Origin: an archaeon
GTDB taxonomy: Archaea > Asgardarchaeota > Thorarchaeia > Thorarchaeales > Thorarchaeaceae
Length of the DNA stretch: 32,000 bases
Direction: 5' to 3'
Assembly (NCBI GenBank): GCA_024275415.1
Contig: JAJRZD010000082.1
Span: 30,001 to 62,000 of the forward strand
Part shown: one piece after another, positions 7,427-9,000 of the stretch
Numbering within the stretch: the stretch's first letter is position 1
Layout of the letters: each line of letters opens with the position of its first letter
Position numbers and translations under genes: made by a program
The notes under the pieces: model-generated
Seen by the model: only the letters and a program-made list of their open reading frames with translations
Databases searched by the model: none
What the model was told of the DNA's origin: nothing

Positions 7427-8880
7427 ACCAGTCCCCTACTTCTAGTCTGATTCAAACCCAACAATCCGCACGGGTTCGAACTCTGCGAACCCTGGTTTCA
7501 ACCCTACTTCTAGTCTGATTCAAACTAGTGATTTCGTCACGTTTGACACGTCGAAGAAGGACTGTTTCAACCCTACTTCTAGTCTGATTCAAACCTGGAA
7601 AAGTTGGAGGACGTTATACGTCCTACCATAGGTTTCAACCCTACTTCTAGTCTGATTCAAACCTTCGTCATAACAAAACTGGGAACGAACCCGTTCCCGT
7701 TTCAACCCTACTTCTAGTCTGATTCAAACGAGAAGTGTTCTGTACAAGACACTTTGGCATGCTATAGTTTCAACCCTACTTCTAGTCTGATTCAAACGGT
7801 CGATTACAGATATTACGTATTCTCACTCGTTTGGTTTCAACCCTACTTCTAGTCTGATTCAAACTCATTCACTTGATGAGGGGGTATTCCCATGTCTGCA
7901 GTTTCAACCCTACTTCTAGTCTGATTCAAACTTCATTTATTCACCTTCTTCTTTCTCCTCCGCTTAGGGGTTTCAACCCTACTTCTAGTCTGATTCAAAC
8001 GGGTACTCGGCCTGGGCTATCGTTCAGAGTTTGAACGATGTTTCAACCCTACTTCTAGTCTGATTCAAACAACGAGCTGGGAACGAACCCGTTCCCAGGC
8101 TGCACCCGTTTCAACCCTACTTCTAGTCTGATTCAAACGAAAGGAGGTCATCGAATACGCAAATGGGCCTCACGGTTTCAACCCTACTTCTAGTCTGATT
8201 CAAACACGTGCTCTGGTAGAGCACTGCTCCCCCATGACGATGTTTCAACCCTACTTCTAGTCTGATTCAAACAACACTAGAAGACAACGAGTCTGTTGTA
8301 TTCGTCATGTTTCAACCCTACTTCTAGTCTGATTCAAACATTCAACGAGGATTATCTAAGAATTCTTAGATTCTTCGTTTCAACCCTACTTCTAGTCTGA
8401 TTCAAACGGGGAGAAGGGCAGGGCACGGTGGCTGAGCGAGATCGTTTCAACCCTACTTCTAGTCTGATTCAAACCTGGCTGAAGATAGGTTTGAACCAGG
8501 TCCCCCAGAAGGTTTCAACCCTACTTCTAGTCTGATTCAAACTATTCGCTATTGCGTTCAACCCTTATCGAGTACGATAGTTTCAACCCTACTTCTAGTC
8601 TGATTCAAACTGGCGGAATCGGTGTATACACCGTCGGTTCTGCTATTGTTTCAACCCTACTTCTAGTCTGATTCAAACTTCTTTCAATGTGTATCACCGT
8701 TTGTCCTTTTTTTAGTTTCAACCCTACTTCTAGTCTGATTCAAACCCATACATCGGAAACTCGGGTCTCAATAAACACTGAGTTTCAACCCTACTTCTAG
8801 TCTGATTCAAACCGAAACTGTGAAGATGAACAATCCTACGAAGAATTCGGTTTCAACCCTACTTCTAGTCTGATTCAAAC
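7427..8880 (-). CRISPR. CRISPR array: 22 repeats (31 bp), 21 spacers (36-39 bp), no cas genes in window
   Basis: Plus-strand repeat GTTTCAACCCTACTTCTAGTCTGATTCAAAC. Exact copies start at 7495, 7564, 7632, 7699, 7767, 7834, 7901, 7970, 8040, 8108, 8175, 8242, 8309, 8377, 8444, 8512, 8580, 8648, 8715, 8782, 8850. The terminal copy at 7427-7457 is degenerate in its first 7 bases. The reverse complement ends in TTGAAAC, a typical 3' handle. Degenerate end at the low coordinate and AT-rich leader at the high coordinate both point to minus-strand transcription. Confidence 0.97.
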
Positions 8881-9000
8881 AGGGCGCATTTTTACTGTTT
8901 TTCTACAAAATAAGTGTTATGGGGGTCGCTTTTTTGACCCATTCCTGGAAACCTCCGGTGATGCAACCCCCATTCAGGATGTAACGAGAATCACGTATTG
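8881..9000 (-). promoter_or_regulatory. CRISPR leader (right boundary approximate)
   Basis: Non-coding, T/A-tract-rich sequence abutting the last perfect repeat. Contains the dyad GGGTC-N8-GACCC (8923-8940). Confidence 0.7.

Follow-up and report, generated by a model that had tools for sequence, protein, structure and literature searches.

An archaeal orphan type I-B CRISPR array with an excess of short perfect palindromes in its spacers

The window, i.e. the whole stretch of 32,000 nt that was analysed, carries a CRISPR array on the minus strand (7427-8880), in which 22 repeats (31 nt each) are interspersed with 21 spacers (36-39 nt). All repeats but one are identical (21/22), the remaining one is degenerate, and the period is 67-70 nt; regular repeats thus alternate with unique spacers in the manner by which CRISPR arrays are recognized. 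The degenerate copy is the terminal repeat of the trailer end (7427-7457, minus strand), and comparison with the consensus revealed deviations in its outer 7 nt. Arrays of related genomes which possess the same repeat (A-type arrays) are degenerate at the same end. The opposite end is occupied by a leader of about 115 nt (8881-8995, minus strand) with a TATA-like CTTATTTTG inside. This leader was delimited by alignment with leaders of same-repeat arrays, and it aligns well with those from G004 (two arrays) and G013, i.e. from genomes of other genera. As the degenerate repeat marks the trailer end and the conserved leader lies at the other one, the array is read on the minus strand, and its repeat in crRNA sense is GTTTGAATCAGACTAGAAGTAGGGTTGAAAC. 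No cas genes were found in the 32,000-nt window, where the neighbours of the array encode pyruvate:ferredoxin oxidoreductase subunits, a P-type ATPase and NikR.

The repeat is also present in eight other genomes of the family, among them G013, where it is identical to that of the studied array. In relatives it flanks a Cst/Tneap-type I-B operon with the composition cas6-cas8b1(Cst1)-cas7(Cst2)-cas5t-cas3-cas4-cas1-cas2 (G004:C29, G013:C72, G012:C139 and G019:C174). The array is thus a genuine type I-B array, orphaned, whose repeat belongs to the Cst/Tneap-type family, and it represents an already known class of objects. It resembles archaeal I-B arrays with Cas4-Cas1-Cas2, such as those of Pyrococcus furiosus and Haloferax volcanii, in its repeat (30-31 nt, with TTGAAAC at the end), in spacer length (36-39 nt) and in the possession of a conserved leader, and differs from them in that no cognate operon was detected in the studied genome, while the relatives have one beside the array. 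An earlier note on this DNA had expected the cognate cas locus elsewhere in the genome; however, the Cst-type I-B operon was not found in the host assembly (G000). Cst1, Cst2 and Cas5t gave no match in this assembly, which is 92.9% complete, so that the genes may lie in unassembled DNA, and queries with the cognate Cas1-4 led to nothing but the Csh-type operon, which is a different one (26-40% identity). A stand-alone Cas6 homologue (C83:1329-2075) is 49% identical to Cas6 of the relatives' Cst-type operon and may process the orphan array; its neighbours are housekeeping genes, for an MFS transporter, a RuBisCO-like large chain, an FGGY kinase and formate-tetrahydrofolate ligase. The A-type leader recurs at two more loci (C56:9107-9200 and C62:40830-40944), in each case with a single degenerate repeat behind it and zero spacers, and both loci look like collapsed arrays. 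A 22-nt fragment of the repeat also occurs at C119:43406-43427. As far as can be judged from an assembly that is about 93% complete, the studied array is an orphan in a lineage where the Cst-type system seems to be decaying.

Six CRISPR arrays were detected in the host genome in total. Array B (C63:102-1266; 30-nt repeat, 17 spacers) is found 36 kb from the studied array and directly follows cas2 of a complete Csh-type I-B operon on C26, the end of which overlaps the start of C63. Four further arrays share a 37-nt repeat that is confined to the host genome within the family, and one of them adjoins a second module, cas6-cas4-cas2-cas1. A 255-aa gene without an NCBIfam match (C113:4000-4767) is located between the leader of a 37-nt-repeat array and cas1-cas2-cas4. 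A Pfam search of the host for Cas1 returned two genes, of 336 and 341 aa, each beside cas2 and cas4 and without an extra domain, and no reverse transcriptase fused to or located beside Cas1 was found in the host genome. The nearest relatives of Cas1b are archaeal, and a contig scan gave just seven distant archaeal loci.

Perfect inverted repeats with stems of 7-9 bp and loops of 0-7 nt are present in eight of the 21 spacers of the studied array. The earlier note had listed eight inverted repeats of at least 7 bp, and every one was recovered at the position assigned to it: GGGTTCG-7-CGAACCC in spacer 1 (7472-7492; 7 bp, loop 7), AGGACGT-3-ACGTCCT in spacer 3 (7608-7624; 7 bp, loop 3), GGGAACG-4-CGTTCCC in spacer 4, flush with the spacer end (7681-7698; 7 bp, loop 4), ATCGTTCA-5-TGAACGAT in spacer 9, also flush with the spacer end (8019-8039; 8 bp, loop 5), CTGGGAACG-4-CGTTCCCAG in spacer 10 (8077-8098; 9 bp, loop 4), GTGCTCT-3-AGAGCAC in spacer 12 (8208-8224; 7 bp, loop 3), the perfect 18-bp palindrome ATCTAAGAATTCTTAGAT in spacer 14 (8354-8371; loop 0) and the perfect 14-bp palindrome CGGTGTATACACCG in spacer 18 (8620-8633; loop 0). 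Of the weaker stems that had been suggested in addition, the one in spacer 5 (7733-7754; 6 bp, loop 10) stands, while the spacers starting at 7526, 8273 and 8543 hold just 4-5 bp, which is chance level.

Spacers 4 and 10 carry an identical 20-nt hairpin, loop included, within unrelated flanks, from which it follows that the source DNA had that hairpin at least twice. The eight palindromes therefore amount to seven different sequences, with total lengths of 14-22 bp and stems that end abruptly. Apart from a possible resemblance of spacer 1 to spacers 4 and 10 (GGG-WW-CGAAC), no consensus is apparent among them; the six palindromes other than the hairpin of spacers 4 and 10 are unrelated by eye, and their common 5- or 6-mers are within chance. 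Families of hairpin motifs were likewise discarded, because the recurring GGGTT/AACCC and AACGAG occur at chance level. Hairpin spacers are confined to the older two thirds of the array, and the newest three, leader-proximal spacers have none.

The excess of palindromes over chance, which is about 20 to 35-fold, is real. In dinucleotide-preserving shuffles (n=2000), stems of at least 7 bp appeared in a mean of 0.42 spacers per array. This bears out the rough expectation of about 0.4 given in the earlier note, which had also proposed the shuffle control; the maximum reached by any shuffle was 5, as against 8 observed. Relative to the same shuffles, the z-score was 6.9 for the mean longest inverted repeat and -5.4 for the mean RNA folding energy. 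Among random 37-mers of the host genome (n=20,000), 1.9% had a stem of at least 7 bp with any loop and 1.2% with a loop of at most 8 nt. The binomial P is 8e-11, or 4e-9 when the hairpin of spacers 4 and 10 is counted once. No other kilobase of the 3.5-Mb assembly reaches the hairpin density of the array; the genome-wide mean is 0.55 hairpins per kb, and the value for the richest contig is 1.7 per kb.

The palindromes look like dyad symmetry at the level of DNA and not like RNA hairpins. Both of the perfect palindromes of the studied array have a loop of 0, and in the same-repeat spacers of relatives, stems of at least 7 bp with loops of 0-2 nt were present in 7 cases, with 1.3 expected. Furthermore, the RNA folding energies of the array, when summed for each strand separately, are alike (-157 vs -144). 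Loops of 0-2 nt and folding that is equally strong in either strand are what one expects of palindromes in DNA. No Rfam match was obtained for the studied array at E <=0.1. As to their placement, palindromes are neither centred nor phased within spacers (mean off-centre fraction 0.6 vs 0.5 under uniform placement). Arms flush with the spacer end numbered 14 of 43, while 5.6 were expected; however, random windows truncating longer palindromes would produce the same surplus, and flush-ended hairpins were for this reason not accepted as proof of a mechanism. Several other candidate origins were rejected. Intrinsic terminators are disfavoured by a T-tract at spacer 4 only and by a scan that found 3 vs 1.7 expected, and the T-arm of tRNA as the origin of spacer 1 fails on account of a stem that does not match it. 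Copying of spacers from other CRISPR repeats is not compatible with a common unit of just 20 nt, and with foreign rRNA genes as the source, an rRNA 20-mer would match many metagenome sequences.

We then compared the studied array (8/21 spacers with stems of at least 7 bp, 0.42 expected) with other arrays. Array B had 3/17 such spacers (0.24 expected), just one of them short-looped, and the four 37-nt-repeat arrays had 1/83 (1.4 expected), which differs from the studied array with a Fisher P of 6e-6. Same-repeat arrays of relatives from eight genomes contained 14/223 (about 5 expected), and I-B arrays beside the distant relatives of Cas1b (Thermococci, Heimdallarchaeota) contained 1/54. When stems of at least 6 bp were counted, the same-repeat arrays of relatives gave 40/223, compared to about 19 expected from the summed per-genome shuffle means. 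This value comprises 12/30 A-type spacers of G013 (3.6 expected) and 11/100 spacers of G004 (7.9 expected), both of which have an intact operon; the Csh-type array of G013 had 0/7, too few to weigh. In the comparison with same-repeat arrays, which the earlier note had named as a possible refutation, the studied array is six-fold above its own repeat family (P 1e-4), and the relatives as a group are enriched as well, 2-3 fold. Decay of the cas system was rejected as the cause of the excess, since the enriched G013 has an intact operon. With G004 not enriched and G013 enriched in spite of intact operons in both, the excess tracks genome history more than machinery. The palindrome load of the studied array is unusual, and the signal comes from this one strong array together with a single relative in which the enrichment is moderate.

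The search for targets, likewise proposed earlier, yielded no protospacer in any of the collections, the scans of which were mostly exact-match. For the studied array, blastn retrieved none from GenBank phages or PLSDB plasmids, and neither did an exact-match scan of JGI metagenome contigs or BLAST against the rest of the order, which comprises 86 genomes, 85 of which belong to the family of the host. Exact 20-24-mers gave no match in IMG/VR, where the queries were six from hairpin spacers, the newest spacer and a degenerate target pattern shared with G013. The host genome was not matched by its own spacers or by those of relatives, and the two large arrays of G004 had no match to phages. Exact matches of the 20-mer of spacers 4 and 10 were dismissed as targets, as their flanks are unrelated and they appear at roughly the chance rate for the collection size. 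Spacer 11 (8139-8174) contains a 14-nt core (TTCGATGACCTCCT on the opposite strand) which is common to two spacers of G013, indicating that the host and G013 share a target family. These two spacers (C19 spacer 2 and C71 spacer 8) overlap and display a few differences, like variants of one gene, and this overlap suggests a candidate CCN-like PAM.

Spacer choice depends on PAMs, free DNA ends and hotspots of replication or transcription, and self-complementary guides are expected to work poorly. We know of no established determinant of spacer choice at the level of sequence structure, dyad symmetry for example, nor, for these archaea, of invader DNA made largely of distinct hairpins. A share of 38% palindromic spacers would point to one or the other, i.e. 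either i) a class of invader DNA that consists largely of distinct hairpins, or ii) a preference for palindromes in archaeal I-B adaptation. In both cases the biology would be new. If ii) is true, palindromes would constitute a previously unrecognised determinant of spacer choice, and the reading of spacer catalogues would be affected. The studied array is also relevant to the question of what share of an array serves as functional memory.

We tentatively favour i), that is, ordinary DNA-derived spacers, a large share of which may well have been cut from invader DNA unusually dense in short perfect palindromes. Spacer borders would be set independently of the palindromes, presumably by the PAM and Cas4-Cas1-Cas2, which would leave palindromes at random positions and at times truncated at the spacer edge. 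As the source, we infer non-coding hairpin clusters, which could stem from small rolling-circle replicons or ssDNA viruses, namely from the regions of their replication or single-strand origins, or alternatively from blocks of REP/PATE-like hairpin repeats. We also infer a role of acquisition hotspots: those at nicked archaeal origins may have focused the sampling on hairpin regions. In Pyrococcus furiosus, spacers are preferentially derived from rolling-circle origins, oriC, rRNA genes and transposons (PMC5737086), and such hotspots at rolling-circle origins, oriC and rRNA genes could favour repeat-rich DNA.

A palindrome-dense invader, which was also among the options of the earlier note, fits best with the random placement of palindromes, their truncated copies at spacer edges and the occurrence of one hairpin in two contexts. 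It also fits best with the contrast between G004 and G013 despite intact operons and with the target family common to the two enriched genomes. The low count in other I-B arrays (1/54) was taken as further support. On the other side, no target was found in the collections or the host, and the four 37-nt-repeat arrays of the same host show just 1/83, although their history may differ. Under unbiased sampling, moreover, the source would need about 12-45 palindromes per kb by a simple Poisson estimate, far above ordinary genomes. Finally, all palindromes are different save one repeated pair, unlike REP/PATE families. The one hairpin present in two flanks is reminiscent of mobile palindromes such as REP/BIME, PATE and MJRE elements; REP/BIME and PATE elements, however, form families of related hairpins, while the palindromes of the studied spacers have no consensus. 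To our knowledge, REP/BIME, PATE and archaeal hairpin-repeat blocks are the sole kinds of DNA to attain the 10 or more hairpins per kb which unbiased sampling would call for. No REP/PATE-like block of hairpin repeats was found in the host genome. An RNA replicon sampled through RT-Cas1, also suggested earlier, is not sustained. Structured RNA sources of RT-Cas1-linked arrays would give fold-prone spacers as well, but both Cas1 genes of the host are ordinary and of standard size, the palindromes look to be of DNA type, and the loops of 0-2 nt in many of them cannot be those of RNA hairpins.

A bias of acquisition is possible, though we regard it as doubtful. Here, palindrome-containing fragments would be delivered preferentially by the adaptation module of the Cst-type I-B system or by host nucleases that feed it, with Cas3 during priming and the hairpin-cutting Mre11-Rad50 as candidate nucleases. 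Hairpins or bound dimeric proteins might shield DNA from degradation, or replication might stall and break at such sites. The joint 2-3 fold enrichment of same-repeat arrays in eight other genomes speaks for this bias, as does the lack of an excess in the 37-nt-repeat arrays of the same cell. The difference between A-type and Csh-type spacers of G013 (12/30 vs 0/7) hints weakly at an effect of machinery, and hairpin-cleaving Mre11-Rad50 enhances I-B acquisition in Haloferax volcanii (bioRxiv 10.64898/2026.05.08.723854). However, G004 possesses the same type of operon in intact form and shows no excess in 100 spacers, and the studied array is six-fold above arrays of its own repeat family. The palindromes, being neither centred nor phased, also do not agree with centred capture by the two-fold symmetric Cas1-Cas2 complex, which we rejected. 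Nuclease cutting of hairpins should place spacers beside palindromes; it should not leave palindromes intact and uniquely flanked to the left and right. Acquisition studies of the I-B systems of P. furiosus (PMC5737086) and H. volcanii (bioRxiv 10.64898/2026.05.08.723854) do not mention an excess of palindromes or hairpins in spacers. Preferential capture of hairpin or cruciform DNA, as considered in the earlier note, is not favoured, in view of the off-centre palindromes and of G004. In a further version, which we consider unlikely, Cst-type adaptation or the feeding nucleases would prefer cruciform-prone palindromes or those bound by dimeric proteins; active systems would later purge most of the resulting poor guides, and orphan or lightly selected arrays would show the raw bias.

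It is improbable that the excess arose by retention, in that poor, self-folding guides were tolerated against elements which the host keeps, or piled up after the loss of interference, and so became over-represented in an old orphan array. Cognate effector genes were indeed not found in the host, two sister arrays are collapsed to a leader and one repeat, and the hairpin spacers occupy the older two thirds of the array, with none among the three leader-proximal ones. Nevertheless, no spacer matches the host genome, and G013 is enriched despite its intact operon. Palindromes between direct repeats are expected to promote slippage deletion rather than to prevent it. Raising the share of palindromic spacers from 1-2% to 38% by filtering alone would further require that more than 90% of acquisitions were lost.

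A non-guide function, with the array kept for Cas6-processed structured small RNAs in a regulatory or decoy role, is very improbable. It could account for an orphan array in which 21 repeats are perfectly identical and the conserved leader is intact, and for the persistence of a stand-alone Cas6 homologue. Positive evidence for this option of the earlier note did not emerge, though: the palindromes are of seven unrelated sequences at differing positions, several with a loop of 0 nt, their folding has no strand bias and Rfam gave no match. A comparison of 12-mers found no spacers common to relatives, which implies a turnover of spacer content as in immune memory. That the palindromes are due to chance or to faulty assembly, for which one could invoke the draft state of the genome (127 contigs), is hardly credible, given a P of about 1e-10 under two independent null models, the position of the palindromes between perfectly phased repeats, the same tendency in a second genome (G013), and the fact that the inverted duplications produced by De Bruijn fold-back are long and located at contig ends, unlike palindromes of 14-22 bp in unique spacers.

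Two minor observations were made elsewhere in the host genome. Contigs C8, C9, C53, C80 and C125 harbour tandem repeats with a period of 60-70 nt, which are coding, have coiled-coil-like RFEAMQKQMDKRF motifs and are not CRISPR. The densest non-CRISPR cluster of palindromes in the genome lies at C119:25990-26225, where genes that encode small proteins of unknown function meet, and comprises five different perfect palindromes (7-bp arms, loops of 0-4) in 235 nt, where about 0.02 such clusters would be expected in the genome by chance.
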